From assembly GCA_964019425.1 (NCBI GenBank), contig OZ025800.1:62001-126000 (forward strand): a DNA stretch of 64,000 nucleotides. Reading direction: 5' to 3'. Each line of letters opens with the position of its first letter. The first letter of the stretch is position 1. The notes beneath the pieces are model-generated. The model searched no databases, had not been told where the DNA came from, and saw only the letters and a list, made by a program, of their open reading frames with translations. A program made the position numbers and the translations under genes. Shown here piece by piece: positions 30,456 through 59,813 of this stretch. The DNA comes from Flectonema sp. DT1601 (lineage: Eukaryota).

Positions 30456-33400
30456 TTAGAATTCAGACTGCACCACCTCACTAATTCCATTAGGAGATTG
30501 ATAAACACCAATTAATTGATTAGCTCTGTCGTAAAACTGATGTCTTAATGAGATGCAGAGCATTTGAATACCAGACTCTGATAGAAGACATCCTAATCGA
30601 CGAGCCTTCTCAGCGTCTAGAGCCGCATCAATTTCATCAAAAAGATAAAAAGGAGATGGAAATGATTGCTGCAATGCGATAGAAATAGAAGTAGCAGAAA
30701 GTGATCTCTGACCACCACTCAGCTTAGTTGGAGGAAGCCATTCAGAATGTCCTGGTGGACGAACTTTTACTCCAACTCCGCGAACAAACAAAACAGCTCC
30801 TTCCGTTGAATATGTTAGGACACAATCGCTGGATTCTGTTGTTAGTTTTTTATAAAGACTGCTGACACATTTATTGATATCAATCATCTTGTTTTGAATT
30901 ACACACAATCGAACTGACTGTGTCTCTTCTAACTTTAGTTGACATGTATTATAATTCTCAGTTAGGGTATTCAATTCATGAGAGATGTCATCACGTTCAG
31001 CTACTGCTACTAAAAATGATTCTATTTTTGAAGTGTCAATTAGGGCCGCGTTGGCTGTCAGCGATGTTCTCTTCGCATCAAGTAACTGCCTCTCATATGC
31101 GATGCTACTTTTCCACTCTTCCGTTGAGGAATAACTACCAGCGCAGTGTGATAAGTATTCTTCTTTATTGAAGACGACGTCTCTTCGATTGCAAATTTCA
31201 TTTTTTCGTAGATCTTTCTGAAGCCGTTTTCGCTGCTTCTCAGTTTCTGAGATTTCTCCGCGAGCTTCGGAAATGTCCGCCTCCATCGCAATCAGTTCCT
31301 TTTCCATTTTCCCGATGTCTCGTTCCATAATAGATTCTCTACTCTTTGTTGATATTGCTTCTTTTTTCAACTCATCAGATTTCGACCGCAGCTGTGCTAA
31401 AGTCTTTTTGTGCTCCTTCATTCCTCGTTCAACTTTACAAAGTTGTGGAGTGGTTGTAGACATAATTGGTCTTTTCATTAGTAATAGTTTTTGTCGTTTC
31501 TGTTGTAGGAGAGCTTCGTGTTTGTTAACCGTCTTCTGTAAGACTGATATGTCTACGAGAATAGCTGCAGTTGATGAACAGGATGAGAGAATCTCCTTCA
31601 GCTTATTATGATCACAGTCGTCATCGAGAGACAGAGAGATCTTTTTAGTTTGAATGACTTCTTTGAGAAGTTCTAAGGATTTCATATTCTCTAATTGACA
31701 TCTCTGCTGACGTTGAATAGTTTCGTGAATACTTTTAACAACTCTTCTGACTTCTAATTGTTGTTGTTCAGTTGAGTTCTTCTCTTCTTGAAGTACAGTA
31801 CGCTCTTCACGCTGTGCTTGTAATGTAGTTTTTGTTTCTGAAACCTTTTGTTTTAGTTTTTCATACTCACCATCAACTACCACAGAGGATGTTATCACAG
31901 ATTCGGATCCAATAACCTGAAGTGAGCATTCTGCTGTGATCCTCGATACAGAATCACCTCCCGTGTAGACTCCCTTCCGTTGAATCAGATCTCCTGAACG
32001 TGTCACGACGGAGATTCTATATGGAGTACTAACAATGAGATCGTGTCCTGTTTGTAAATCCTCAGCAATAATAACATTTTGTAGCCTCGCCTGAACATAT
32101 GACAGTACAGACAACGAGTAGTTAGGATTAAGAGCAATTGGTGTATTTGGTTTTGAAGGAGACAAGAAGATAAAGCAAGCAGCCGATTCTAGGACCAACT
32201 TCTGTGGAGCGAGTTTTGAAAACTCTGGAGAAGTATGAGGAGGAAGAACAATAGAAGTTATGATACCAATTCGATTATTACGAAAGGATTCCACTACCAG
32301 GTCTGCAGCTTCAGTATTCTTAACGAAAACAGTGTTGGCAATCCACCCAACTGATGAGCTGTTTACAGCGAGAGCATATCGCGCATCAACCTGAAGCCAT
32401 TGGTATGCAAATCCCAGGATGTTATTATTCTTATTCATCAGATGATAAATAGTATCTCGATATCTCACTGCTACTCGAGAACTACAAACTGATATCTTCT
32501 CCGACTGATGATGTAATTGAGTTGTGAACTCCTTCAACTTGGTTTGTGTTTCAGAAAGTACTCGGCTAGCGTTACAAACTCTTTCAGTACAAGAAAGCAA
32601 CCTCGAGTTCAGGTCAGTCAACTTCTGATTTTCTGAAGCTGACTCAGAGTGAAGTTGTTGTAATTCGATTTCCCGTTTTGACTGCAGCTGTTCAGAAGTC
32701 TCGACCTCCTTCTGAAGGATGAGTAACTCTGAAGCTTCCTTTAGGTTAATCGCTGTATCAATATCGTTATCAACTTCAGACTTCTTGTGATAAGCTGCTG
32801 AGCGGTCAGCTAATTCTCTTCTGGTGTCCATCAGCTCTCGTTCAACGATTCGAATTTCATCTCTGCGGGTGTCGATGTTGCTCAATAATCTTTTAGCAGT
32901 TCGCTCTTCTCTTTGCAGCTGTGCAATGCAATCAGTCTTTTCAGTATAGCTCTCTTCTTCAATGGTGATATTGTCGTTTAAAGACTTTAGTTGTTTTGTA
33001 AGTGAGGAGAGTGATTCTCGAATGTTTCTTTTTTCAGAGTAGAGATGGTCTTTTTCTACAATCAGATCTTTGTGATGACGAGACAGTTTACAAAGACGTT
33101 GCTGACGTGTTGTATGAATGCTATCAAGACACAGTTGAGCCTTTAGTATCCAAACAACTTCTGCGTCTGAGTAGTCAGAAAACTGTTCATTGACTGCCTT
33201 CCACTTTGCGATCATCGGAGATGTTAATTTCTGTTCAGCAGATAATGATGACAATCTTAATGTTAACGATTCCTTTTGTTGTTGAATTCTATTTAGTTCT
33301 TCAGATATTTGATTACATTGTTTCTCAAGCAGATGAGTTCCACACAATCTCTCAATGTGTTCTAAAAACGATAATGGATTAAGTTGCAATAGAGACGTCG

Positions 33401-36400
33401 TGTGTTGTTGTAATATAACAAACCTCTGAGGGAACTCAATATCAACACCGAGAACTTTTAATTGTGATCTGACTGTGGTCGCGTCAGAAGGTTTGTTGTT
33501 GAGATAATAAATATTATTTCCTGTTTTAAACACTCGGCGTTTAACAAAAACAGAATCCCCTCCAACAGTAAAGTGAACAGTTACTGAAGCATCTGTATTA
33601 CCATTCTTCGATATTAGATCTGAAAGACGCTTACATCGTAAGAGTTCACTTGGTAGTCCTAATACAAAACAAACCGCGTCTATTAAATTAGACTTTCCAG
33701 ATCCGTTCATTCCGACAATGCAGTTGAATCCTTTTGATATTTGAATAGTTGTTTTTGATGCGAAACTCTTAAACCCATCGAGTGATACCTCCACCAGTGA
33801 TACATTAGATTGGTCTATGTTCTTATTATACTCAGCAAGGTTATGAATTGTTTGCTTAACTTCTGAACTTACTTTGAGAGGAGTCAGTCCCATCTGAGAC
33901 TTCGTCTGATCAATATCTTCAATACATTTCAGTGGTGTTGTTATTCTCTCGTCTGCTGAGATAGTTATCTTTGAGTTGCATTCCCACGGCTGTCGCACCT
34001 CCTCAGACGATAAAAGCTCAGTCTCTTTTCCATGCTGCTCTATTCCCGCATGCTCTGAAGGGAAATCCTTCTCAACCCACGGCTGCTTGACTAAAGAGTC
34101 AGATAATGATTTCAGTTGTTCTTCATCACAAGGAAGGTCTTCGTGTGGAGATGATTTCAGTTGGACTTGGGGATTGATACTGACATTAATATCATTGTGG
34201 TCTTGCCAAGGCTGCTGTACAGGGGACTCATCGAGCTTTGTCTTTTTTCGACAGATTTCTTCCTCCTTTATTGATAAGCGTTCTGACTTTCCAGACTTTC
34301 TAAATGGTCTGACTTCAAGTCTTCGCCCTTTCCTGTTTGACGATGTGGTTACATTGTTAGTGGCTGAGGGTTTGGCTGATGTTGGTATTTCGCTGGTGTC
34401 TCTGCGCACATTCTCGTGAGAATGTACTTTCCCTCTTGCTCGGAACTTTGCTTTCGAATTCTTTCGCGGTAAGACGACAGTCTCAATATCACTGTTGGTG
34501 TCCATCTGCTCACGTTTTACTTTACACTTGATCGATGGACTCTTTTTGAACATTATTGATTCATTATCACTACTGCTACTACCAGCGCAGGTAATCACTT
34601 TACGCCTTGTGTTGGGTTTTGAAAGTTTCTTATCTTTTTTGTGAACTTTCTCCCCGGACCTGATTTTATTTAGAGACTGCCTCGCTTGATTAGAAACTCC
34701 AGAGAGATGTTTCGACTGTTTATTCTCCTGAGCACCTTGAGAGTCTTTGAGCTCTTTGTGGAGGACTACTTTCTGACGAGTGACTTTGCCAGACGTTGGG
34801 CTCTCTGACTCATCGTCAGGAAACCGAACTTTCTTCTTCGATGCACTCGACCGGTACTTTGGAGAACCGCTTCCCTTTCCCGCAGTTGGCAGCAGAATAG
34901 ACGCAATCTTCTTAGGTGTCGTTACATTACAAGGTGAGCATCCCTCTCTCTCCTCGTCTCGAATTAGATTGTCGTTGTGAGTTTTAATAATTGCTGCAGG
35001 CTGAATAATTTGCACTGGCTTTTTAGCAGCACTGCCTCCGTCCTTTGGGTGCTTTTCAAAAACTGCTTTTGCATCACTCTCGACACTGAAAGGCACTGAA
35101 CTCTCATTTAGTGTCTCTGCTTGTTGAGTAACAGCAGCAGGCTGAAGAACCTGCACAGGCTTCATAGAAACCTTCGTTGTAATTGTGTCACACAACTTGT
35201 CCGGAGCTGCAGGCTGAGGAACTTGCGCTGGTGTCTTCGCAGCAGACCCCTGTAGAGCTGCTGGTTGGAGGATTTGTGGTTTCTTAGGCGTTTTCTTATT
35301 TACATTCGGCAGATCACTTGGTAAGTCTACATTGTCATGGACAGTATTAGTAATTTGAGTATCTTTGGGTTCGCTTAAAGTGTTGAGGGCTGAAGGCTGT
35401 AGAATTAGACGAGTTTTTCTGGGTGTTGTTCGTTTCATCTGTTCCTCCCTGACCTGAGAAGTGTCTTCAGCTGTGAGAGGAATTGATTGATTAGTTTTAA
35501 TACTCGCAGAAGGCGGAGGTACTATTTGATGCTCACAGAATGATTGCACTCCGAGGGAGGGCTGCAATAGTTTCCTAACCTTCTTAGATTTCTCTGTGGA
35601 TACACTCTCAATTGGGTTAACAGGAGAAGATAACTGTTCGATGGGTTGAGCAACATCACCGCCTTCTTTACCTTCCGATTGAATAGAGTGATTGATAATA
35701 ACAGAAGACAAGCTATTCACTTTCTGCTTATCTCCGTATGACTCCGATCCGAGATCTAGTCCTTCCTGTGTAGACATCACTGAGCCTTCTGTTGCAATAA
35801 TTGTATCCTGCGGCTCTATTTTGATTACCTGAGGAGTCACATCTTCACTAAAAACAATACTTCGATACGAACTCTGAAGAGGAAGGTGTGGCGGGACAAT
35901 AACAATATCTCCGTCCGGTTCCGGAGATGTACTCGCAGCTGCTCCGCTTGCTGAGGAAGAAGTGCAGCTAACGTCCCGCAGCAGCTGTTCTCGTAGCCTT
36001 CCAAAAGCTGTCGATGAGGACTCTGGAGTGCTTCCATTTGTCAGTGCAGGTGCAGGAGATGTAGTTGACGGAGGTGTTACAGAAGAAGTTGTGCTGACAT
36101 CTCTGAGAAGCTCCTGTCGGAGGATCATAAAATCATCCATCCTCCTACTCTCTTCGATTGCCGCTCGACTGGTTGGAGACGCACTTAGTTCGTTACCACA
36201 ATTACTACCTCCCTTAATTGGTTTCATCCACTGACGAGGAGGCTTGTGAGGACTTCTCCCGTCAGTCATATCGGAACTCATAAAACTTACATCATTTTGT
36301 CGAACAGTGCCACTCGCAGGAGTAGTGTCTGCTCCAGTTGTAGTAACAGAAGTTGTTTGAGGAGATTGTTGTGAGTCATGTTTTGATTGCTCAGAGTGTT

Positions 36401-36755
36401 CTACAGACCATGAACTCTTCCTGACCGCCGCAGTTATGATTTCTGAAGTCAGTCTTGTTGAGTATCCACACTCAGTAGATAATCCACTCTCAGCTGGAGT
36501 AACACTTCGACTGAATAGTGAGAACGTCTCTTCAGACTGAGCTGGTGACTTTTGCCCAATCTCCTCATCAACTTCCTCCTTCAGTTGGATGTTATTTTCT
36601 AATTGTTCTATAAATACCTTTCCTGACGGAGTGGTATTCTCCCAGCGTATTATTTGAGAGTCGTTGGAGCATTCTGAAGTGCTGGCGCTTGGACACGAAG
36701 GCGGTTCCCTCCCTTCGTAAGGCAGCTCGAACAGCTTTCGACATATCCGCGGCAT
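30456..36755 (-). CDS. SMC: SMC-family ATPase (SMC1-4-like, subfamily unclear) with ~980-aa N-terminal disordered extension
   Basis: GFKSF, Walker A GMNGSGKSN, Q-loop FVILQ, hinge G-x6-G-x3-GG (GDLIQRKGVYTGG), signature LSGGQ, Walker B/D-loop FYLFDEIDAALD, and coiled coils between them. Confidence 0.92.
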   Translation of the reverse strand: MPRICRKLFELPYEGREPPSCPSASTSECSNDSQIIRWENTTPSGKVFIEQLENNIQLKEEVDEEIGQKSPAQSEETFSLFSRSVTPAESGLSTECGYSTRLTSEIITAAVRKSSWSVEHSEQSKHDSQQSPQTTSVTTTGADTTPASGTVRQNDVSFMSSDMTDGRSPHKPPRQWMKPIKGGSNCGNELSASPTSRAAIEESRRMDDFMILRQELLRDVSTTSSVTPPSTTSPAPALTNGSTPESSSTAFGRLREQLLRDVSCTSSSASGAAASTSPEPDGDIVIVPPHLPLQSSYRSIVFSEDVTPQVIKIEPQDTIIATEGSVMSTQEGLDLGSESYGDKQKVNSLSSVIINHSIQSEGKEGGDVAQPIEQLSSPVNPIESVSTEKSKKVRKLLQPSLGVQSFCEHQIVPPPSASIKTNQSIPLTAEDTSQVREEQMKRTTPRKTRLILQPSALNTLSEPKDTQITNTVHDNVDLPSDLPNVNKKTPKKPQILQPAALQGSAAKTPAQVPQPAAPDKLCDTITTKVSMKPVQVLQPAAVTQQAETLNESSVPFSVESDAKAVFEKHPKDGGSAAKKPVQIIQPAAIIKTHNDNLIRDEEREGCSPCNVTTPKKIASILLPTAGKGSGSPKYRSSASKKKVRFPDDESESPTSGKVTRQKVVLHKELKDSQGAQENKQSKHLSGVSNQARQSLNKIRSGEKVHKKDKKLSKPNTRRKVITCAGSSSSDNESIMFKKSPSIKCKVKREQMDTNSDIETVVLPRKNSKAKFRARGKVHSHENVRRDTSEIPTSAKPSATNNVTTSSNRKGRRLEVRPFRKSGKSERLSIKEEEICRKKTKLDESPVQQPWQDHNDINVSINPQVQLKSSPHEDLPCDEEQLKSLSDSLVKQPWVEKDFPSEHAGIEQHGKETELLSSEEVRQPWECNSKITISADERITTPLKCIEDIDQTKSQMGLTPLKVSSEVKQTIHNLAEYNKNIDQSNVSLVEVSLDGFKSFASKTTIQISKGFNCIVGMNGSGKSNLIDAVCFVLGLPSELLRCKRLSDLISKNGNTDASVTVHFTVGGDSVFVKRRVFKTGNNIYYLNNKPSDATTVRSQLKVLGVDIEFPQRFVILQQHTTSLLQLNPLSFLEHIERLCGTHLLEKQCNQISEELNRIQQQKESLTLRLSSLSAEQKLTSPMIAKWKAVNEQFSDYSDAEVVWILKAQLCLDSIHTTRQQRLCKLSRHHKDLIVEKDHLYSEKRNIRESLSSLTKQLKSLNDNITIEEESYTEKTDCIAQLQREERTAKRLLSNIDTRRDEIRIVERELMDTRRELADRSAAYHKKSEVDNDIDTAINLKEASELLILQKEVETSEQLQSKREIELQQLHSESASENQKLTDLNSRLLSCTERVCNASRVLSETQTKLKEFTTQLHHQSEKISVCSSRVAVRYRDTIYHLMNKNNNILGFAYQWLQVDARYALAVNSSSVGWIANTVFVKNTEAADLVVESFRNNRIGIITSIVLPPHTSPEFSKLAPQKLVLESAACFIFLSPSKPNTPIALNPNYSLSVLSYVQARLQNVIIAEDLQTGHDLIVSTPYRISVVTRSGDLIQRKGVYTGGDSVSRITAECSLQVIGSESVITSSVVVDGEYEKLKQKVSETKTTLQAQREERTVLQEEKNSTEQQQLEVRRVVKSIHETIQRQQRCQLENMKSLELLKEVIQTKKISLSLDDDCDHNKLKEILSSCSSTAAILVDISVLQKTVNKHEALLQQKRQKLLLMKRPIMSTTTPQLCKVERGMKEHKKTLAQLRSKSDELKKEAISTKSRESIMERDIGKMEKELIAMEADISEARGEISETEKQRKRLQKDLRKNEICNRRDVVFNKEEYLSHCAGSYSSTEEWKSSIAYERQLLDAKRTSLTANAALIDTSKIESFLVAVAERDDISHELNTLTENYNTCQLKLEETQSVRLCVIQNKMIDINKCVSSLYKKLTTESSDCVLTYSTEGAVLFVRGVGVKVRPPGHSEWLPPTKLSGGQRSLSATSISIALQQSFPSPFYLFDEIDAALDAEKARRLGCLLSESGIQMLCISLRHQFYDRANQLIGVYQSPNGISEVVQSEF

Positions 36756-37042
36756 TGAACTGTAAAAATAAATATCAATTTAATCCTTCTTCTTTTCATG
36801 TAGTTCTGTAAAAGAAAATAAACCAATAAAATTAATAAATAATATCCGTACCTGTACTTGTCCTGAACAGTCGAGGAAGGGAGCTAGTCGGATCCCCAAC
36901 AAGGAAGTTGGAAATAAAACATAAAACACTATTTGTAGTATTCGTCCGTTACAACTGCGCGAGGTTAGTTTTGGAAAGAGGACACTTTTTTTTTTTTGTA
37001 ATTTCTTTCATTAAATTCTGTATCTTAAATACCTTTTTATCA

Positions 37043-48569: not shown

Positions 48570-51500
48570 CTACGGCTGAGGAGAACACAACTTCTCTGCG
48601 TCACGAGATGGGCGCCTTCTATTATTACTATTACTAGCCGGGCTAAACATAAATATGTTTACCTTTATGCCGGATGACAAAGCAACAAGCGCTGCAACAA
48701 CAGCAGCATGTGGTGTTGCGTACAGATCTTCACAGCAACCACTAAATGGTAATGACCTCGATATTCTAACAGGAACATAACATTGCTTAGCGTAGGATTG
48801 AATAAGAAGAGATTGGCGATCATCAGGTTGAGTCACAAGATGATTATTAATATCGTCGAGTGCTCTGTCAAAGTTTCGAGATAGTAAGAATCTCCACGCT
48901 GATTTATATAAAGGAAATGGATCATCTTTTACTTGATCATACATCCAATCTTCTGTTTTCACTCCTAGAATTCCTTCAAAAGAAAAAACGTCACTTCCAT
49001 TTGGATCAAAAGCACTTCCGTGAATCCGATCAACAGGTCTGACTGCTGCGAACATCTCAAACTTCACAGCCAGTGTTCGACAGCATAAGACTCGACACTT
49101 TAAAGCTCCCGCAAGCCTGCTGAAGATGTTCGCTCTTTCTAAGGGTTCTCCAGCACAAAAATTGCTTTTCAACGATGTGGTTCCTACATTACCAGTAACA
49201 GCAACACCAGCACTGAGACCTACGCAGATTGATCGCTCCTCGATGAGATCGTCCGCAAAGCGTGCTGCTAGTCTATGTGCACGTGGTCCTTGCCAAGTGA
49301 TGACAGCACTTCCACAACTAATTGATTGAACAATTCCATTATGACAGGCGCTGAGTGTTTTATCATTCAGAGACTCCAGAGCTGCTTCTAATGTGGAAAC
49401 AAGTCGAGTTGTGAGCTTATAAGCATCCTCAGTATTCCTAATTGGTATATGACATTCTGCTACTACAATACGACGCTTTCTCACACCGAGTCCAATAGCA
49501 CGCTGTATGTCCAACAGTTTTTCATATCTGTGATGTGATTTTGTTTAAAGTGATTGATAGCAATTAACAGCTACGATATAATTAAATAAATATCATACCC
49601 AGATGTCTGCGACTTAGAATAAGAAGTAAAGGTTCCAGTTGCAATGGGAAGTGTTGGACCTGTTATGGCGTCAGGAGAGTCACCCTGATCGCCATCAATA
49701 AAACTGAAGATCGAATTAGGGAGGAAAGGTTTAAACAATCTCAAGTTTGATATAATTGTCCCGAGAGACGTTCTCATTGAAGCAAGTTGGTCAGCTTGCT
49801 GACCTGCTACAATTGAACGGTCGATGTAAGCCTGGGTAGCATCAAGATCGAACTTTAAAAGAAGTTCGGATACATTCTCTACTAACGATATCGATGACGC
49901 AGCTCTTTCTCTTTCAGCTTCCAACTTCTCAACGTAATCGTATGAAAACGCATTGTGCTCACTCCTATCAAGTCCACGTAGCTCATCTATTTCTCGAACT
50001 CGTAACCCCAATGTGTATTTTAAAAACAAACCGATTGAAACAGTAGTAATAATAGCCCAACATATAGCAGACAAAACACCAATTCCTTGTACTACAAATT
50101 GACCATGATCAGATCCAGTAAGAAGCCCATATGACTGTCCTAGATTACTATTATTAGTAGCAACCTTTATTCGAGTACTGTCGCAGAATAGTCCAGTTGA
50201 GATTCCACCCCACATACCTCCCCCAAGGTGGACTGCGCCAGCATCAACAACGTCGTCTATGCGAAGGTGGAATCGCAATTTGTGGATGCCATAATATACC
50301 GCAGTTGAAACAACACCAACAACAATTGAATAAGGTGGTGATATGTAGGCACAACCAGCTGTGATTGAAACCATTCCACACAGAGCGCTATTACACAAAA
50401 ATCCGATATCAAAATATCCGTACAGACGGTGGCTGAACACCAATCCACTTACAGTTGCTGCCGACGATGATAAGATGGTGTTCACAGCTGCCAATCCAGC
50501 AGTTTGGCTTCCTCCGTTAGTTATTCCTCCAACAGAACCAGCATTGAATGCAAACCAAGCAAACCACAGAAGTAGAGTACCTGTTTAGTGTTTTATTATT
50601 AGGAAGTTAAATTAAAGACAAAAGGCTATCAAAACTATATAACAAACATACCCGTGGCTTGCTGAAATCTATTGTGAGGTGCGACTAACAATTGTCCTTC
50701 TTCAGAAAACAGATCAATCCCATCAGGTAGGACTCTATTTCCTAACATGAATGCGAGTACTAAAGCTGAAGCACCACCATAACAATGGATAACAACTGAA
50801 CCAGCAAAGTCAAGAACACCATTAGCAGCATAACGATTGTCTGAGAATGGCGACAACCAACCATAATCTGACCATACCCAATGAACTATGGTGGGATACA
50901 CGAATCCAGTAGCAAGAGTTACGAATATATAATACGACAGTAATGACATTCTCTCAGCAACAGCACCACTAACAATAGTAACTGCTGCAGTCATATAAGT
51001 AAATGATAAAAAGAAGTGAGAGTACTTACTCGCATTGGGATCATCAGCATCTGGCCGTAGTGCGTACAAATGTTCGTCACCACCTCCAATAAAAACAGAA
51101 CCACTTCCGTATGCAATAGAGTAACCAACACACCACCACATTAGTGAACCGATAGCACAATCACCAAGATTCTTAAAAATAATATTTATCACATTGCCTG
51201 ATCGAACCGAACCAGCTTCCAAAAAACAAAATCCCAACTGCATAGAAAACACGATAATACCACACGTCAAGGACCAAGTACCATCCAGGTCAGTAGATAC
51301 GCTCGCGAGCTCAGTTTGAAGGGTAAAGAGAAGATCCTGTTTTTTTTTTAGATTAGTTTTGTCATCTTTTGATATCATAATATTGGTAACTAATAAAAGT
51401 CAAAGCATCTGACAAAAAGAATCGGCCAACTTCACTTTTTACTTTTTTACTCAACACTTTTGGAGCACAATCGGGAAGGTTGGTTACGCTGCCACAATTC

Positions 51501-53408
51501 TCATTCTACCGAACAACGGGTTTGTAGGTACAAAATAGAACAAAAAAAAAATACCTCTACTTCCTCTTGTGTAATATTACTATTGGCTATCGAGTTGGTG
51601 GAACCACTGTTACCGTCTACTGCCGCGGTGACTACTGTAATAGAAGTCAAGAGAGCAAAGTATGTAAACAGTCGAAGTACCATCATAAATCCAGATCGAT
51701 TAATGTTCTTAAGGAATTCAAGAAGTGAACGAGAACTGAGATTTGAATAGGTAACAAAACTGTGACTTTTAAAAGCCGGGTCTGTGACAAGAGAAGAAGC
51801 ACTTTCCTTACGATCAATGAGAACATCTTTATCACACTGAAACATTCTCGTCATATTAACACCTGGGATGAGTGTTGATGCGAACCTTGCTGCGATATCT
51901 GCGGGTATTCTTATCAATTCTGAAGCACTCTTAACATCAATAAATTCAGTCGCCAGACTTTCAGTATCAACTAACTCATCAGTTTCTACAGCATATGTTC
52001 CCATTTTAATCTCTCTGAGAGTAGATATTACAGAGTGCTCTTTGAACGCTTTAAATGCTTCTTTTGAGGCAACTAGTGGAGCGACTAACCAGTTCGTATA
52101 ATCGCAATGGGTTGCCCCGTGATCAGAGTGGTCTTGATCAGTACTTGATGTTATGACAGGAATCACTTTTGATAATTGACAAAGTAGAATTATAACAGCA
52201 AAAGAACAAAATACTCCCCAAGCAATGATGCAAACTATTGCTAAAAGATGAGAAGAAAATATCTCACCCCTAGACGGTGTTTCCATGATGCTTCCGTCTT
52301 TAAAGGGAACGAACTTTAACTGTGATAAGTCAGCAAGTAATGGAGTCATCAGTGTTGATACTAACGACGACATGAAATAATTAGCAACTCCATCAAGAGG
52401 ATCGTGAACTCCCAACTTCGTCTCAAGAATGTAAATCGAACAATAATAACAAACAGTTGCTGCTACTCCCATTAACGGAGCGTATGCGAGAGGTATGTAG
52501 AAACCAGAACCACAAGACATCACAAGACCTGATATCGTACAGCTGATTACTGATTCTAAAGTAAAATATCCCAACAGCTCTCTGCTTACTACAAATGTTG
52601 TTAAGACTGCGAATGAACAGCAGATTGTTGAGAATAGAGCAACAGCAGACACGGCATTTACCGAAAAAGGAGTCTGACCAGATTGACTGTATCCAATTCC
52701 ACACATGTGAAGACAGTATTGTCCCATCCACATGAAAATCAAACCAACCGTTTCAAAAAACCTATTATGTCCAATTTTCGGCATTGCACTAAAACACCCA
52801 AGTTGAACATACCGAGATAGACACAATGCGAATGTTGACGGAAGTAAGAATAACAAAACAGGAGATGACGCTGCTAAAACACCTCCACCAACTTTATCAT
52901 TTGACCAAATTGCGAGGAATCCATCAGCACCCCAAACCCAATGTGCTGCAATAGGGAATATTATTCCTGAGAATAAAATCACAATAATACCGTAAGGAAT
53001 TAAGCGAAGTCTTCCTACTGAGACTCCAGCAATTGGAGAGTATGCTGTTGTTACGATCATACAGGTAGCAAATAGAAGTGGATAACCCTCAGAGTTGGTC
53101 TTTGAGTAGTCTTCTGGTCGTGTTCCAACAATACTTCCTTCGGAGAATGCTATTCCAAATCCAATTAAGTACCAAATAATCGCTGTTAATACTGTTTCGA
53201 TAATTGTACTGGCAGCACCCGATAACACCATAGTACATGATGACGATCCTGCTTTATAGAAAGCCGATCCGATTTGTGACATAAAGAAGAAGATTCCACA
53301 AATCAATAACCACATTCCTCTTAAATCAGACTTTAATGTGATTGCCGCATCTAACGTTGATGTTAAATTTTTTATAAAAGTCTCTTCGTAAATAAGAGAG
53401 GCTGACAT
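48570..53408 (-). CDS. AMT: 4-exon fusion (~1490 aa): degenerate AMT, linker TM, intact ammonium transporter, HAMP-like helices, degenerate class III cyclase
   Basis: Exons 53408-51555, 51336-50652, 50580-49599 and 49527-48570. Introns 51337-51554 (phase 0), 50581-50651 (phase 1) and 49528-49598 (phase 2) are all GT-AG and phase-compatible. Splicing restores ATG|TLLLWFAWFAFNAGS. AMT motifs: MQLGFCFLEAG, SGAVAER, HWVW, LDFAGSVVIH, DDVVDAGAVH. The extreme C-terminus may contain one more intron (donor at 48662). Confidence 0.82.
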
Positions 53409-54657
53409 GTCACCTTTAAACTTTGATGGGAAGAGAAAATAAATATAACAACCGAAGGACTACTAAAATTATTTTCTAAATTTTAACGATGAGTTTCGTG
53501 CTTGTTCTGTTGAGGGAAAATAAATCATTTAATCATCTTCAAAAATAGCGACACATCTTACTGAAGTGTAAAGTTAGGAGAACTGTAAACTATCGCTGCT
53601 GAGAAAAAGTTTCGAAATCGATTCCTCAGTCCTGCCTCCAAAAAAAAAAAAGAAAAAAAAAAAAAAAAAAAGAGAACAAAATAATAAATAAAAAAAAGGT
53701 TTTTTGTTAAATCCAAAACGTTTCGTTGTTCTAATCATTGTGAGATTTTTTTCTTTTTTTTAATATCATCGTCGAGAGGTTTCGTTTAACTTCGATAAAT
53801 TAATTACGACATCGTTTTTAATGACAACAACACATCTCTATATCAGATTCCATACTGTGATGGGGAAGTAGTTTAGTTCGACTAACATCTTCATCTGATC
53901 CATTCAGTGAACTTTTAGAACACAAAACAATATTTATGTTATGTCCTTTACGAAATAATACATCCACTAATCAATGCGTCTTCTTTAGTAGTATCAATAC
54001 GACCTTCAACGTGTTGCATTCCTCTCGTGTGAGAATTTCGTACCTTTATAGATGACGGCATATTATGTAACGAAATAAGTGTACTGATGGGTTGAAGGGA
54101 GTATTTTAAAAAAGATTTCCCCCCCCCCTCTTTTTATTTTTGCTAATCTATTATTCAACACCTTATCCCCTCACCACTTTACCCCGATTTAGTTGTTGTT
54201 TTTTTTTTGTCGATAAAAATAGAAATAAAGTGTAATAATCAACAAAATTTAAAAAAAACAGATATGAAATAAATAAATACAGGGGAAAAAGAAACAAGAA
54301 AGCGCGACTTCTCTCAGCAGAAGGCTGCAGGGGAAGATCATCGGAAAACCAAAACTGAATAACATCACAAAGTTTAGAAATATAAATATGACAAGCATTA
54401 ATACCACAGTGGGCATGCGCCTTCGATAAACAAAAAGATGGCACCACAGAACAGAATGCCTTAATAATGAAACAGTTTACACTCAATTCACTCCCTTAGT
54501 AGTATTTAAGAGAAGATAGACTATTATTAAAAAATATGAATTATTACCGTAGTCCATACAGTAATAGGCTTGGATTTATACGAAATTTTTATGGTCGAAA
54601 AAAAAAAAAAACGAAACAAAGCAATAATCTAATAAGCGAGTTCCGTAGTCAGATGAA

Positions 54658-56068
54658 TTATTTCTTATTGCCTGATGGCTCTTCTGGTGCTCTGTTGTTA
54701 TTTTAATTATTTATGCATGTTGAAATGAATTGACTAAACCCAATTACCTAATAGTACCTATCCATGACAAGTACTACAAGGATAGAAAATATAGTTAGCA
54801 TACCCGAAAGGACGATCAAGAGGGGCTGGGGGTTCTTGTAGGGCAGCAGGTACTGTTGCTTCAGCAACAGGATTATAATCACCTACTCGGTAATGAGACA
54901 CTCCGGAACCACCACCTGCTGGTCTAGCGTGTGTACTTCCAACTGTTTTCGTTTGTTGATTGCGACCACCAGGCTTTCCGTATATTGACATCCCCTTTCC
55001 TTGTCTGTCACCAGCACCACCTACACCACCTCTTCCTAGTACACTACCATTAGAGCCACCAATACCACCAGCACCGTTTACACCTCCATCAAGAATAGGA
55101 TTGCCGTACATATCGAGTGGTGTACCATCTGGTGCATATGAATGAGGTTGCATCTGATTTCGACCTGGAATAGGATTCCCGTACTCATCTAACACCATGT
55201 AACCAGCGTCTGAAGCATCTGTCTCACCAGGTAGTCTGCTTAATTGACTATTTGGGTATCTCGATTTCACTGTTCCTCCGTACATCCCAGGATTGTCAGC
55301 TGGTGTTCGTTGCATCCCCAGATTAGTTGTTTGAGTTGGTTGACGAGGAGCAGTGTATTCACTGTAGCCGCTTTCTGATGGTGGGACGCGGTATGACTGA
55401 ACTGGAGGGGAGTTGTACTGTTGGGGAGGCTGTTTGTAACCGCGAGATTGTTGCATTTGTGAAGCGAAATCCTGAGCAGACATAGGACGTTGTGATTGAA
55501 TTGGTTGGGCAGGAGCGGGATGTTGGTAGCTGCGATGCTGTTGCTGTTGCTGTTGTTGTTGTTGCTGTTGAACTGGATACCCTCTTCTGCTTGCAGATTG
55601 TAATTGTGATGCAAAGTCTTGGGAAGTCATTTGCTGGTGTTGATGTGGAGGTGGAGGGTAACCAGAAGATGATGTTACACTTTGAGTATGAGGATTTCGT
55701 TGTTGATATCCAACAGACTGATAATTGTTACCTGAACGTGGTGCAGTAGAGTAGTGTTGTTGTTGTAAAGGAGATGGTTGTTGTCTCATACTTTGTGGTG
55801 GGGAGATCGTATTATTCGGAGCTCCTGATCTCTGCCCTCCAACGCTACCAGCGGCAGACATTAACATGAAATCATCAGCTGTCACCTTTCTACCTTTTGA
55901 ACTGTGATCATGATATCCTGTTGAACCGTCTTTGTGGAAATCAGTTTCTTCATCTCTATACTTTGCGTTATGAACACTCATTGATCCTCCTGCCATGGCT
56001 CCAAGATATCGAGGATTCTCTCGACCTTCTTGTCCTAATTTCACATAAAGGTTTGGATTGTATTGCAT
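54658..56068 (-). CDS. Q/P/G-rich low-complexity protein, 2 exons
   Basis: Exons 56068-54804 and 54691-54658; intron 54692-54803 is phase 2 and gives ...RPFGAPEEPSGNKK*. Internal repeats M(T/S)xQDFASQ x2 and LDxYGNPI x2. Confidence 0.75.
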
Positions 56069-56282
56069 TGTTATTAGATCTGACTTGTTAATAGAAATAA
56101 AGAAATTATTAAAACTAACAACACAAAACGTTGGATATCACTCGAGGATTTCCATCTCCTTCATTACGACTGATGTTCTGGGTCAGAGGGAACGTCAGTC
56201 AGTTTTAAACACTTTCAAGTAGATAGGAATACGAAACTTGCAGACATCACCACCATAAGGTAGTACCTTGACTCTTGTGTAA

Positions 56283-57218
56283 CTATTCAGCGCTGATTGT
56301 TATCTTTCCTTGCTTAACAGATAAAACCCTTCCAAGGAGAGGTTCAAACACTACAAACCCACCTGCAAGGATCGCAGTAGTTATTATGTTTGTGAAGTTT
56401 TTGGATACAAAAGTTTCTTTCTTGGACTTGGGAAACAGTTTTTCAAATCTTTTTGTCTTTCTGACAACCCGACCAGCAATACGAAAGAAAATACGAACCA
56501 CACACCAACTAGTGTAGACACCACAACCAGTAACTAAAACAGCATGATTGTTAACATCGAATTGAATTGGGTTACCAAGTTCTACAGACCACCACGTGTG
56601 ACTGACTAACATAGTTGACAGCAATACCTGTCCTTGAAGCATTATTTCACCAAAAGAATTAAAGTTTTCCATCCCAATGACTTTAGGTGCAAGTGCCGAA
56701 GTGATGCACATTGAGATTGGAGCGCAAGACAGAAGTATTTCTGTTACCGATTCACCAATATTCAAAGCTAGAATGTGACCAAATAATACAGAATACGTTA
56801 CTAAGACCATAGGCTTTACTAATCCAAGTTTTGAAAGTAATGTTATAATCCTTCCTGATGAGTACCCAAATAGAGTAAATCCAGCAAGTGGAAGCATTCC
56901 GAATTCATTGTTTCGTAGGGTTGTGAATATTGTTTCCTTACATTTAAGAGCGTGGATTACAAAAGGAACAGGTGTTAATAGCATTACAACTCCTGATGGT
57001 ACCACTCTCGGTAGTACTTCCCACAGCTTGGCTCCAACAAGAACAGCTGTAGCTCCAGTTGCGGCTTTCATATAAACTTTTGATCCAAAAACAACACCAT
57101 CAGTGAGTCTTGATTCTTCTCTTCCTTTCAGACAGGAATTCACAAATCTAAAACCAAAGTACGCACACCCAGCCATCCCAACTCCAGATACAACCTTTGC
57201 AAGGGATGGACTTTCCAT
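56283..57218 (-). CDS. Multi-pass membrane protein of unknown family (weak resemblance to Bax-inhibitor/GHITM-type proteins)
   Basis: 311-aa ORF with many hydrophobic helices. FDVNNH...VRIFFRI only loosely recalls the TMBIM C-terminus. Confidence 0.6.
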   Translation of the reverse strand: MESPSLAKVVSGVGMAGCAYFGFRFVNSCLKGREESRLTDGVVFGSKVYMKAATGATAVLVGAKLWEVLPRVVPSGVVMLLTPVPFVIHALKCKETIFTTLRNNEFGMLPLAGFTLFGYSSGRIITLLSKLGLVKPMVLVTYSVLFGHILALNIGESVTEILLSCAPISMCITSALAPKVIGMENFNSFGEIMLQGQVLLSTMLVSHTWWSVELGNPIQFDVNNHAVLVTGCGVYTSWCVVRIFFRIAGRVVRKTKRFEKLFPKSKKETFVSKNFTNIITTAILAGGFVVFEPLLGRVLSVKQGKITISAE

Positions 57219-57868
57219 TTTGTAGATAAGTTTGCTATTTGAATGGATTTAAATATTTATATTGTTTCTCAACTTCAGTGACTACCTAACACACAAAGGA
57301 TACTTTACGACTCCTTATCACCACTGAGACGAAGGCGAACTATTTCTCGCTTCCAGAGCCTAAAAAATTGGAGGGTCCCAGTGTATTGAAAATACCAACC
57401 TGTGAAGGGAAAAAAAAGAAGAAACTAATAACAAAAAACAAAGCACAACTACATAATAAAACGCATCGACCATGAGGCCTGGTGTGGTGGGCATTACATT
57501 TTTAAGAATCGATAGAAGGGGAAAACAGGTTAGATAAATAGTCCCTGTTGGAGACGGGTCACCTCTTCTCTCTCCTGCAATCAAATAGCAGGACTCGGTA
57601 GACATCTTAAATCGTATTTATAACAGATGGTGAAGTACAGATAATTATTATTATTTTTCTTCACAACTTAATTAAGAGAACAAATACCAAGACTGTACCT
57701 TCTCCTTCATCAAATAATAAAAGACGTACAATAGTTTATACTTCACTATTGGGTTTGTGTTGGACTACAATTGGAGATTGGGGGTTTGAGGGCTCCCTTT
57801 TGCTAATTCTAAAGTACGCAAACTAATAAAACGACACTAAGGTCCCGTTAGGTGCTTCAAAGTCTGTC

Positions 57869-59641
57869 TCATGTTCTGATGTTTTGATTTCTCAATGAGA
57901 GAATAATCAAAGCCAAATAAGGATAAATAACCCACTCTGGTACTGTCGCAGCCCCCAGGGTGCTGCCAGCTACAGTTCCAACGATCGAACTCGCCCAATG
58001 AGAAGTGGATTTAACGAACTCAATATCAGCTCCCGAACTCGACCAGTACGGAAATCCAAACTGAGAACCAAATGCTCCCCCGAGTGACGACCCAATCACA
58101 CTTCCAATATAAATAGAAGAAGACTTCTTTAATGATTCCAGAGCGTGATAGACGTGGTTCGATATAGTTCGTGGTTTCCAATCATTGGCGATATATTTAA
58201 TTACTTTTGAGAAGACTACTAAAGCTGCCATACGAGGACCAGATATTTTCTTTTGACCAGTGCAAGTTAGTAAGTCTGCTACCGACTCTGCTATCGCAAG
58301 TGGAACTGAAGTACCACTGCGAACGCCTTCTATAATTCGAATGACAGCAAAAAGTAAAGGATGGACTTCTTCAAGCCATGAGCGAATACCTGCAGAGACA
58401 GCTATTTTAATCTTTTCTTTGTATGTTATCTTTTCATCGTGAAGTTGACCTAATAGTACACCAATAGCTACTAACATATGAGGTGATAAAGTGTGTATTT
58501 GATATTGAGAAACATGATCGCTATCTGATACCCCAACACTAGTAAACAACACACCACTGTATCTATTGACTGATACTAAACTTGCTCTCCCAGTTAAACT
58601 ACGAAGAGTTGTGACTGATGAAGTTCCAAGGAACTTATACGACGCAATCGTAGAACCAATTTGAGTTGCATTGTCTGCTGAAGTTATTGGTATAAAGTTA
58701 GCCATGTCATGGGGATGCTTAGTCTTAGCCCTTTGAGAGTAGAATCTTTCTTGTCCAACTGGAAATCTAAAATTGCTAATTAAATCACCACAGATCTTAT
58801 GAGATACAATATTATCTCCTGTTTTCAAAGATAAATCTTTAAAATTATGAATTCCCCCATCGTTGAAGGCGTGAACTGATACATCCCTCCTCGCCAATCC
58901 CAACTCAACAACTTCAGCTCCACCTTTTGAGTGTCCAGATGCTAGTCGTATAAAACCAATCGGTTTTGCGTATGAGATTACTTCCTTCTCTCCAAAGCGT
59001 CTTCCTTTTGGAATCAGAACAAAGTCACTCTTGCCGACTTCACTTTGAAAACCGATACAGTTCGATATATTTGTGCATCTTTCAAAAGCCTCTGATACGT
59101 CAGTAGTGGTACCTAAATCATTTAATCCCCTAATTGAAGTATCCCATCCTCTACCTGGTTGAACAGTATAACCAGATAAAGTATCCGCGTTGTGAGAAGT
59201 TTTAGAACAGTTCACGTCGTGGAAGTTGAGCAAGTCTTTTGCGTGAGGATTTAATTCAGGTGTCCCAGCTAATAAATATTTTAAATCCAACCATATATCA
59301 TAGGCTGTCGCTGTACCACGAGACACAGTCCAGGTTACTAAATGTGGTGTTGTAAGAGATGCAATAAACGCGAACCTATCAGTGACGTCTAATACGATTA
59401 GTTTTGGTAATGTCGAGTCTTGTTCTATTTTAGTTTGTAATACTGTCTTTCTTTCACTTGCTGGAAATTTGTTTAATTGGTATGCTAATTTTGCAAGTTT
59501 GGCACCAGTTGCCGCACTCGTATAAGGATCAACACCAGCCTCTAGCGATTGGAAAGTTTCAGGAGGCAGCATATCAATTTTAAAGAATCCATGATCCTTT
59601 ATTATTGAGTTGGTCTTTGTTATGTTCTCTTGACGAGCCAT
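57869..59641 (-). CDS. Class 3 lipase-like alpha/beta hydrolase with hydrophobic Gly-rich C-terminal region
   Basis: VSRGT...DIWLD, nucleophile elbow GHSKGG, HAFN, GDLIS (Asp) and PHDMANF (His). Confidence 0.78.
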   Translation of the reverse strand: MARQENITKTNSIIKDHGFFKIDMLPPETFQSLEAGVDPYTSAATGAKLAKLAYQLNKFPASERKTVLQTKIEQDSTLPKLIVLDVTDRFAFIASLTTPHLVTWTVSRGTATAYDIWLDLKYLLAGTPELNPHAKDLLNFHDVNCSKTSHNADTLSGYTVQPGRGWDTSIRGLNDLGTTTDVSEAFERCTNISNCIGFQSEVGKSDFVLIPKGRRFGEKEVISYAKPIGFIRLASGHSKGGAEVVELGLARRDVSVHAFNDGGIHNFKDLSLKTGDNIVSHKICGDLISNFRFPVGQERFYSQRAKTKHPHDMANFIPITSADNATQIGSTIASYKFLGTSSVTTLRSLTGRASLVSVNRYSGVLFTSVGVSDSDHVSQYQIHTLSPHMLVAIGVLLGQLHDEKITYKEKIKIAVSAGIRSWLEEVHPLLFAVIRIIEGVRSGTSVPLAIAESVADLLTCTGQKKISGPRMAALVVFSKVIKYIANDWKPRTISNHVYHALESLKKSSSIYIGSVIGSSLGGAFGSQFGFPYWSSSGADIEFVKSTSHWASSIVGTVAGSTLGAATVPEWVIYPYLALIILSLRNQNIRT

Positions 59642-59813
59642 CTGTTGGAGTTGACCCTTTGTTCTGTATGAAATAAATTAATGAAATGAAGAAGGAATAA
59701 CAGTCTCTGAACAGATATTATAATAATGTTATAAATCTATAGAATAGTCTAATCAAAAGACTTGTTGGAGTTCGTAAATGTAATCAGCCGAAGGAAAGTA
59801 AAAAAGGGAATTC

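Follow-up and report, generated by a model that had tools for sequence, protein, structure and literature searches.

A Predicted Double-Amt Protein with a Degenerate Cyclase-Fold Tail from Flectonema sp. DT1601, a Candidate Ammonium Receptor

How eukaryotic Amt/Mep proteins relay an ammonium signal is an open question, sensor and output usually being separate. Could a single eukaryotic chain hold both? The question is raised by a gene predicted on the minus strand of a 64,000-nt stretch of Flectonema sp. DT1601 DNA (GenBank assembly GCA_964019425.1, contig OZ025800.1, positions 62,001 to 126,000), hereafter the window, in which positions 48570 to 53408 encode a degenerate Amt domain, a second Amt domain with its pore residues in place, and a class III cyclase fold. 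An earlier sequence-only reading proposed a one-polypeptide ammonium sensor that feeds a cyclic-nucleotide pathway. The analysis described here retains the sensor and revises the output: with a confidence slightly better than even, we read the product as an ammonium receptor whose output does not depend on enzyme activity, the cyclase-fold domain of its tail being predicted dead.

Ammonium site and degenerate cyclase-fold tail

The Pfam profile Ammonium_transp matches exon 1 at near full length (E 4.8e-31) and exons 2 and 3 at E 2.4e-43 and 6.9e-51. Aligned to Escherichia coli AmtB, Amt domain 1 (52080..53336, residues 25-443) retains the Trp, while the D160 equivalent, the twin His, both gate Phe residues, and the Ser are gone. 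All 11 helices of this pseudo-Amt still align to AmtB and remain hydrophobic. Amt domain 2 is the intact partner, with the AmtB correspondences F107 to Y732, W148 to W773, D160 to D794, H168 to H802, F215 to F858, S219 to S862, and H318 to H964; the alignment thus agrees with the earlier assignment of six kept pore residues and a Tyr in place of F107.

An ammonium site termed N1/N2 has been defined in the bacterial receptors Sd-Amt1 and Ks-Amt5 (PMC11152129). In Amt 2 these ligands (Q, E, N, D, T, S/T) are Q651, E658, N674, D677, T738, and S741, spaced as in the published site and all encoded by exon 2; Amt 2 also has the switch residues K673 and Y753 and the exit-narrowing N910, whereas the pseudo-Amt has lost the N1/N2 ligands. 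A sequence search of the PDB with exon 2 returned Sd-Amt1 and Ks-Amt5 as best matches (E about 1e-26, compared with 1e-13 for AmtB). The assimilatory Tyr and Ser that line an open cytoplasmic exit are absent, and E658 and N910 stand at the AmtB Tyr and Ser positions. The conserved N1/N2 site lends support to the ammonium-sensor idea, and the predicted exit-blocking Asn points to a receptor over a transceptor.

Amt 2 runs into a helical linker (49712..49933, residues 1063-1136) that ends in an LP-containing motif and, by motif and position alone, looks like the cyclase transducer element (PMC13466520, PMC5995499). The class III cyclase fold that follows (48957..49493, about residues 1186-1364) was recognized by predicted structure. 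The exon-4 model, built from a 22-row alignment with a predicted local distance difference test score (pLDDT) of 76.8 and a predicted template modelling score (pTM) of 0.61, matched class III cyclases with a Foldseek E of 2.2e-9 and a VIA Z of 18.1 (root-mean-square deviation 2.9, 166 residues aligned), and the top 25 rows of the structure search were all of this fold. Atlas scores of exon 4 to cyclase clusters were 0.93-0.94. At the level of sequence, exon 4 had no Pfam match, a PDB sequence search reached only E about 1, a word-indexed search of longer proteins gave zero matches, and HMMER retrieved seven relatives besides the window's own. The fold predicted by the sequence-only reading downstream of Amt 2 and its helices is borne out by structure prediction; of the two profiles that it had pointed to for the spliced protein, Ammonium_transp was found on both Amts and Guanylate_cyc was not found in exon 4.

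Class III cyclases rely on a catalytic set of Asp, Lys, Asp, Asp, Asn, and Arg, in which two Asp bind metal, the Lys/Asp pair specifies the base, and the Asn/Arg pair stabilizes the transition state. None of the six is kept in exon 4, where the metal-binding Asp positions are taken by H1200 and G1246 and the base-specifying and transition-state positions, in an approximate register, by S1242, F1297, E1304, and I1308. Across the 22 rows of alignment A1, no catalytic column is conserved. The domain is probably a catalytically dead pseudo-cyclase, and cyclic-nucleotide synthesis by this copy, as the sequence-only reading had envisaged, is not supported by the residues or by the degenerate subtype to which the domain belongs (see below). 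It is followed by a WMY motif and a TPR-like helical hairpin (48774..48926, about residues 1375-1425), whose structural match has a Z of 8-9 over about 50 residues, weak for helical bundles.

A family of Amt-cyclase proteins with exchangeable outputs

With exon 3 as the query, 77 long proteins were matched, which separated into 15 close relatives, nine of them with Guanylate_cyc, and 62 others in which Amt is mostly joined to histidine kinase, GGDEF, or SpoIIE domains. A second search, from which the best 120 of 701 matches were considered, added at least four members. The Amt-cyclase family thus comprises at least 20 proteins with the window protein included, and the named members are all diplonemid. 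The same fusion occurs as complete open reading frames in transcripts of Artemidia motanka and Lacrimia lanifica and in two Diplonema papillatum gene models. The proposal of pseudo-Amt, Amt, and cyclase fold in one polypeptide in a protist context, here likely a diplonemid one, is supported by these proteins, some of them transcript-derived; the architecture is not a one-off and already resides in public protein collections.

In the Amt tree, the family stands apart from 23 non-family rows (SH-aLRT, the Shimodaira-Hasegawa-like approximate likelihood ratio test, 99), with the window's Amt 2 on the family side of the branch (99-100); this is a quick tree whose non-family rows are 22 of the 62 other matches plus AmtB, with no named single eukaryotic AMT1. 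Within the Amt 2 tree, the window groups with D. papillatum and Lacrimia and not with Artemidia (SH-aLRT 91). The window protein has all the family hallmarks: Amt 2 within the clade, a helical LP linker, and a cyclase-fold tail. All 19 complete family Amt domains that are either C-terminal or the sole Amt keep the N1/N2 ligands, the switch Lys/Tyr, and the exit Asn, and the N1/N2 site is lost in 11 of 14 first Amt domains, including that of the window. Helix-by-helix conservation across the pseudo-Amts gave no clear interface signal.

Behind this shared receptor portion the outputs vary. Among 20 members, 12 have a cyclase that retains all six residues, followed by a degenerate one; in three the first cyclase domain is degenerate too; three (the window protein, P0009, and P0010) have the degenerate domain alone; one (P0003) combines a pseudo-cyclase with a Ser/Thr kinase; and one (P0005) ends after the linker. 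Such swapping of outputs behind the same linker is what a sensor module would be expected to show. A similar linker was found in 96 of the 107 non-Amt cyclases among the matches listed and in none of the 62 other long Amts, so that Amt is only one among many inputs to a cyclase module that has expanded in diplonemids. A cAMP-making reading fits 12 of the 19 relatives, each of which has an additional intact cyclase domain that the window gene lacks, and these intact-cyclase members are, in our judgment, fairly likely to be NH4+-regulated cyclases. In the model of a D. papillatum member, the Amt is accompanied by a linker of three helices and a pair of alpha/beta domains, and the cyclase match is to Trypanosoma brucei 1fx4 (E 3.6e-12); Atlas matches to the D. 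papillatum Amt-cyclase stretch reached only 0.78 and are uninformative on novelty.

The pseudo-cyclase domain of the window protein clusters with its counterparts in P0003, P0009, and P0010 and in non-Amt proteins of Artemidia, Namystynia, Peranema, and Naegleria (support 98), and the second domains of members with two cyclases fall outside this group. The non-Amt rows were chosen by likeness to the window, which makes the grouping partly one of construction; P0003, P0009, and P0010 were chosen via the Amt exon. Because the degenerate subtype is also present in Naegleria and Peranema proteins, it appears old rather than freshly decayed, which suggests a long-standing non-catalytic module. That the tails with a pseudo-cyclase alone arose once was neither demonstrated nor rejected by the approximately unbiased (AU) test (p values of 0.105 and 0.535). 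Simple loss of an active cyclase at intron 3 was also considered and is disfavoured, as the window domain is of a different subtype (98).

Several other proteins were encountered alongside the family. P0003, an A. motanka transcript with an 1841-residue open reading frame, places a Ser/Thr kinase after the double Amt and pseudo-cyclase and is a candidate ammonium receptor kinase. A scan of 34 of 64 parts of a metagenome collection retrieved three loci, none with a cyclase at the frame end as judged by eye. In the 928-residue frame of L004:126-2910, an Amt is accompanied by another, weakly matching Amt-like stretch, with no cyclase seen: tandem Amt folds also occur outside the family. P0079, P0117, P0133, P0166, and P0196 carry cyclase or pseudo-cyclase modules with cytochrome b5, b561, or peroxidase domains and are possible haem or redox receptors. 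In P0076, Amt is fused to PF04960 and PF17959, which we take to be glutaminase-related.

Proposed mechanism, rival readings, and precedents

Domain order, residues, and fold are taken from the sequence and from models, and the functional steps that follow are all inferred. In the proposed receptor, NH4+ would enter Amt 2 as far as the twin-His site and be diverted to the N1/N2 pocket, N910 narrowing the exit in the manner of Asn-269 in Sd-Amt1. The K673/Y753 switch would then shift the helices at the C-terminus together with the LP transducer-like element, by which the pseudo-cyclase/TPR tail would be reoriented or dimerised. The last two steps are the least supported. In one, the tail would act on a partner, most likely the active cyclases of the same expanded family, which it would inhibit rather than complement because it contains neither half of an active site. 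In the other, the pseudo-Amt would serve as a structural subunit of the Amt trimer without a cyclase tail, and could thereby cut the tails per trimer from three towards two, the number that a cyclase dimer needs.

The pseudo-Amt and Amt 2 are separated by an extra hydrophobic helix (51612..51686, about residues 575-599) that resembles a signal anchor or signal peptide and would bring the chain back outside, resetting the topology as Amt 2 requires. All 14 double-Amt members have such a helix, with a hydrophobic core and small residues at its end, 24-44 residues before Amt 2, and in P0013 and P0015, members with a single Amt, a comparable helix stands at the N-terminus. Judged by eye, its likeness to a signal peptide makes cleavage there possible. 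Near it, at 51708 on the minus strand, lies a pyrimidine-rich AG about 20 nt before M574/M575. It shares third place among 301 sites ranked by the pyrimidine content upstream of them, and could give rise to an isoform with one Amt and a signal peptide at its N-terminus. We hold only tentatively that two chains are made, whether by signal peptidase at the helix or by trans-splicing at 51708 to yield a single-Amt isoform from M574/M575. The invariant signal-like core, the N-terminal helices of P0013 and P0015, and the rank of the AG speak for it, an uncleaved signal anchor accounts for the topology equally well, and the idea is compatible with the ammonium receptor proposed here. More tentative still is a wider scheme of one-component ammonium signalling in diplonemids, in which Amt receptors would lead to cAMP or kinase outputs, a pseudo-Amt released by signal peptide cleavage would set two tails per trimer, and window-type proteins would act as ammonium-gated inhibitory decoys.

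Several observations weigh against a receptor with a dead output. The literal receptor motif is broken at the F/T position after the Asp, occupied by C678, and none of the family domains matches it; the Sd-Amt1 equivalent of C678, Phe-49, is a non-ligand (PMC11152129). Plant AMT1 proteins carry the N1/N2 signature yet transport (PMC11152129), so that the site is not diagnostic of a receptor, and the best PDB sequence matches of exon 3 are to AmtB, not to the receptors. Five of the catalytic positions come from a weak profile alignment (17.8%, E 0.0003) and the first from alignment A1; single positions may be off, with E1198, R1305, and N1307 close to canonical sites. The 64-kb window yielded no partner cyclase, and the transcript is a prediction from genomic sequence. 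Some of these points favour a protein that is mainly an ammonium transporter or a true transceptor, whose dead tail regulates transport, for example through nucleotide or partner binding. Amt 2 retains the full set of pore residues, F107 being replaced by Y, and AMT1-type transporters share the N1/N2 residues, but the exit-narrowing Asn, the missing assimilatory Tyr/Ser pair, and the intact cyclase or kinase that relatives place at the same position make this reading unlikely. The uncertain register, which could be wrong by a few positions, and the complete class III fold behind an LP transducer-like element would also allow an active non-canonical nucleotidyl cyclase that makes cAMP or cGMP upon ammonium binding; with none of the six canonical residues present, their positions unconserved in alignment A1, and no Guanylate_cyc match, we consider this improbable.

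Least probable of all is an erroneous gene model in which exon 4 or exon 1 belongs to a separate gene. The model is a prediction from DNA with many frame-preserving alternatives for introns 1 and 3, but the first Met of the exon-4 frame is residue 158 of 318, past most of the fold, so that exon 4 is unlikely to stand alone; P0009 and P0010 align across nearly all 1492 residues at 31%, and the complete transcript reading frames have the same domain order. A receptor for ammonium whose output is non-enzymatic remains our preferred reading of the locus.

The closest precedents are Ks-Amt5, an Amt-histidine kinase (PMC5764959), and Sd-Amt1, an Amt-HAMP-diguanylate cyclase (PMC11152129), both of which share with the window protein the pore residues, N1/N2 ligands, switch Lys/Tyr, exit Asn, and helices leading to a cytosolic signalling fold. 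The window protein differs in being eukaryotic, in its tandem pseudo-Amt and extra helix, and in a class III fold that replaces HisKA or GGDEF and lacks catalytic residues. It has the bacterial AmR sequence features bar one non-ligand position, and by analogy may work in an AmR-like manner, while it probably falls outside the active class III cyclases. The Amt tree, with its 23 non-family rows, some of them unnamed, does not discriminate for or against descent from the bacterial receptors. Two D. papillatum proteins, KAJ9448406.1 and KAJ9470023.1, whose sole annotation is 'putative ammonium transporter 1 member 5', belong directly to the family. They have the same Amt 2 and linker (Amt 2 is 44% identical to that of KAJ9448406.1) and an intact cyclase before the degenerate one, whereas the single cyclase-fold domain of the window protein is degenerate and of another subtype (WMY plus TPR). 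Trypanosomatid receptor adenylate cyclases of the ESAG4/GRESAG4 type have one membrane helix and a large ectodomain in place of Amt domains. The likeness to them lies in T. brucei 1fx4, the cyclase match of the D. papillatum relative's model; the window domain itself is degenerate. Fungal Mep2 and plant AMT1 signal or transport ammonium via the Amt fold, AMT1 with the shared N1/N2 residues, and we know of no fused signalling domain in Mep2 transceptors or plant AMT1. Mep2 is without N1/N2 (PMC11152129). The P4-ATPase-guanylate cyclases of alveolates and stramenopiles (PMC13466520) set a precedent for a protist transporter-fold module joined to a class III cyclase, although there the module is a flippase and the guanylate cyclase is active.

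Full-text literature searches, whose reach did not extend to Fig. 7B of PMC11152129 (domain organisations by kingdom) or to most subscription papers, brought up no account of a class III cyclase fused to a eukaryotic Amt, nor of this tandem form. In the D. papillatum genome paper (PMC10161547), neither 'ammonium' nor 'cyclase' occurs in the main text and 'ammonium transporter' is absent from seven supplements; the available cyclase passages of the Euglena genome paper do not mention Amt, and the excerpts of the Symbiodinium genome paper describe an Amt expansion but not an Amt-cyclase fusion. With sensor and output in one chain and an intact cyclase in the D. papillatum members, coupling of ammonium to cAMP becomes directly assayable, the window copy providing a natural enzyme-dead family member. 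The mismatch between trimer and dimer noted for Sd-Amt1 finds a possible, testable answer in the tandem pseudo-Amt, and the family suggests a nitrogen-sensing route for an abundant group of marine protists.

Gene model and genomic neighbourhood

Four minus-strand exons totalling 4479 nt encode the predicted 1492 residues plus a stop, with zero internal stops. Exon 1 (51555..53408, residues 1-618) contains the start codon, the degenerate Amt, a cytosolic spacer, and the extra hydrophobic helix; exon 2 (50652..51336) the N-terminal half of Amt 2; exon 3 (49599..50580) the C-terminal half with F858, S862, N910, and H964, the helical linker, the LP motif, and a Ser/Thr-rich spacer; and exon 4 (48570..49527) the cyclase-fold domain, WMY motif, TPR-like hairpin, tail, and stop. 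The introns, all GT..CAG, are intron 1 (51337..51554, 218 nt, phase 0), whose exact ends are the least certain, intron 2 (50581..50651, 71 nt, phase 1) within Amt 2, and intron 3 (49528..49598, 71 nt, phase 2) in a low-complexity linker. Their GC content is 0.24-0.33, against 0.39-0.43 in the exons, and each is closed by stops in three frames. With 30, 8, and 18 frame-preserving GT/AG pairs at junctions 1, 2, and 3, open frames alone are insufficient to fix the junctions. Removal of intron 2 gives a gap-free alignment to eight of eight relatives, making it the sole junction pinned exactly by alignment; introns 1 and 3 were placed by intron type and linker length, and intron 1 as called leaves 34 residues between helix and Amt, within the relatives' range of 24-44.

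As splice controls, a minus-strand scan for short AT-rich GTA.G..CAG introns gave 13 candidates, introns 2 and 3 among them, and each of the five tested from the other 11 lengthens its adjacent frame. In the neighbouring EMP70/TM9SF gene (62829-61079 and downstream, minus strand), three of these five, short introns of the GTATG..ACAG type (61, 70, and 72 nt), extend the frame from 316 to 631 residues, the first uniting consecutive Pfam halves. The joining of four fragments through three canonical, phase-matched introns into one frame, as first proposed with junction numbers that are the exon ends, is thus confirmed, and on genomic evidence we take the predicted four-exon gene to be real.

Twenty of the 21 frames of at least 150 residues in the window lie on the minus strand, and the genes around the Amt-cyclase gene are unrelated eukaryotic housekeeping genes. 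D. papillatum has unidirectional gene clusters with canonical introns (PMC10161547), and the host of the window is likely a diplonemid, as are all named close relatives of the Amt part. A 2107-residue open frame at 30456-36779 (minus strand) has SMC domains beginning near residue 995, its first ~990 residues being without a Pfam match. Upstream of the Amt-cyclase gene, at 54758-59677 on the same strand, are three frames (459, 321, and 602 residues) without Pfam matches, the nearest of them Q/P/G-rich. Between these and the start codon, the minus-strand stretch 53670-53421 has a poly-T tract and an AG at 53636, then a candidate 55-nt intron of the 5' untranslated region (53561-53507). A further AG, also pyrimidine-rich, lies at 53421; the AGs at 53636 and 53421 are possible trans-splice sites.

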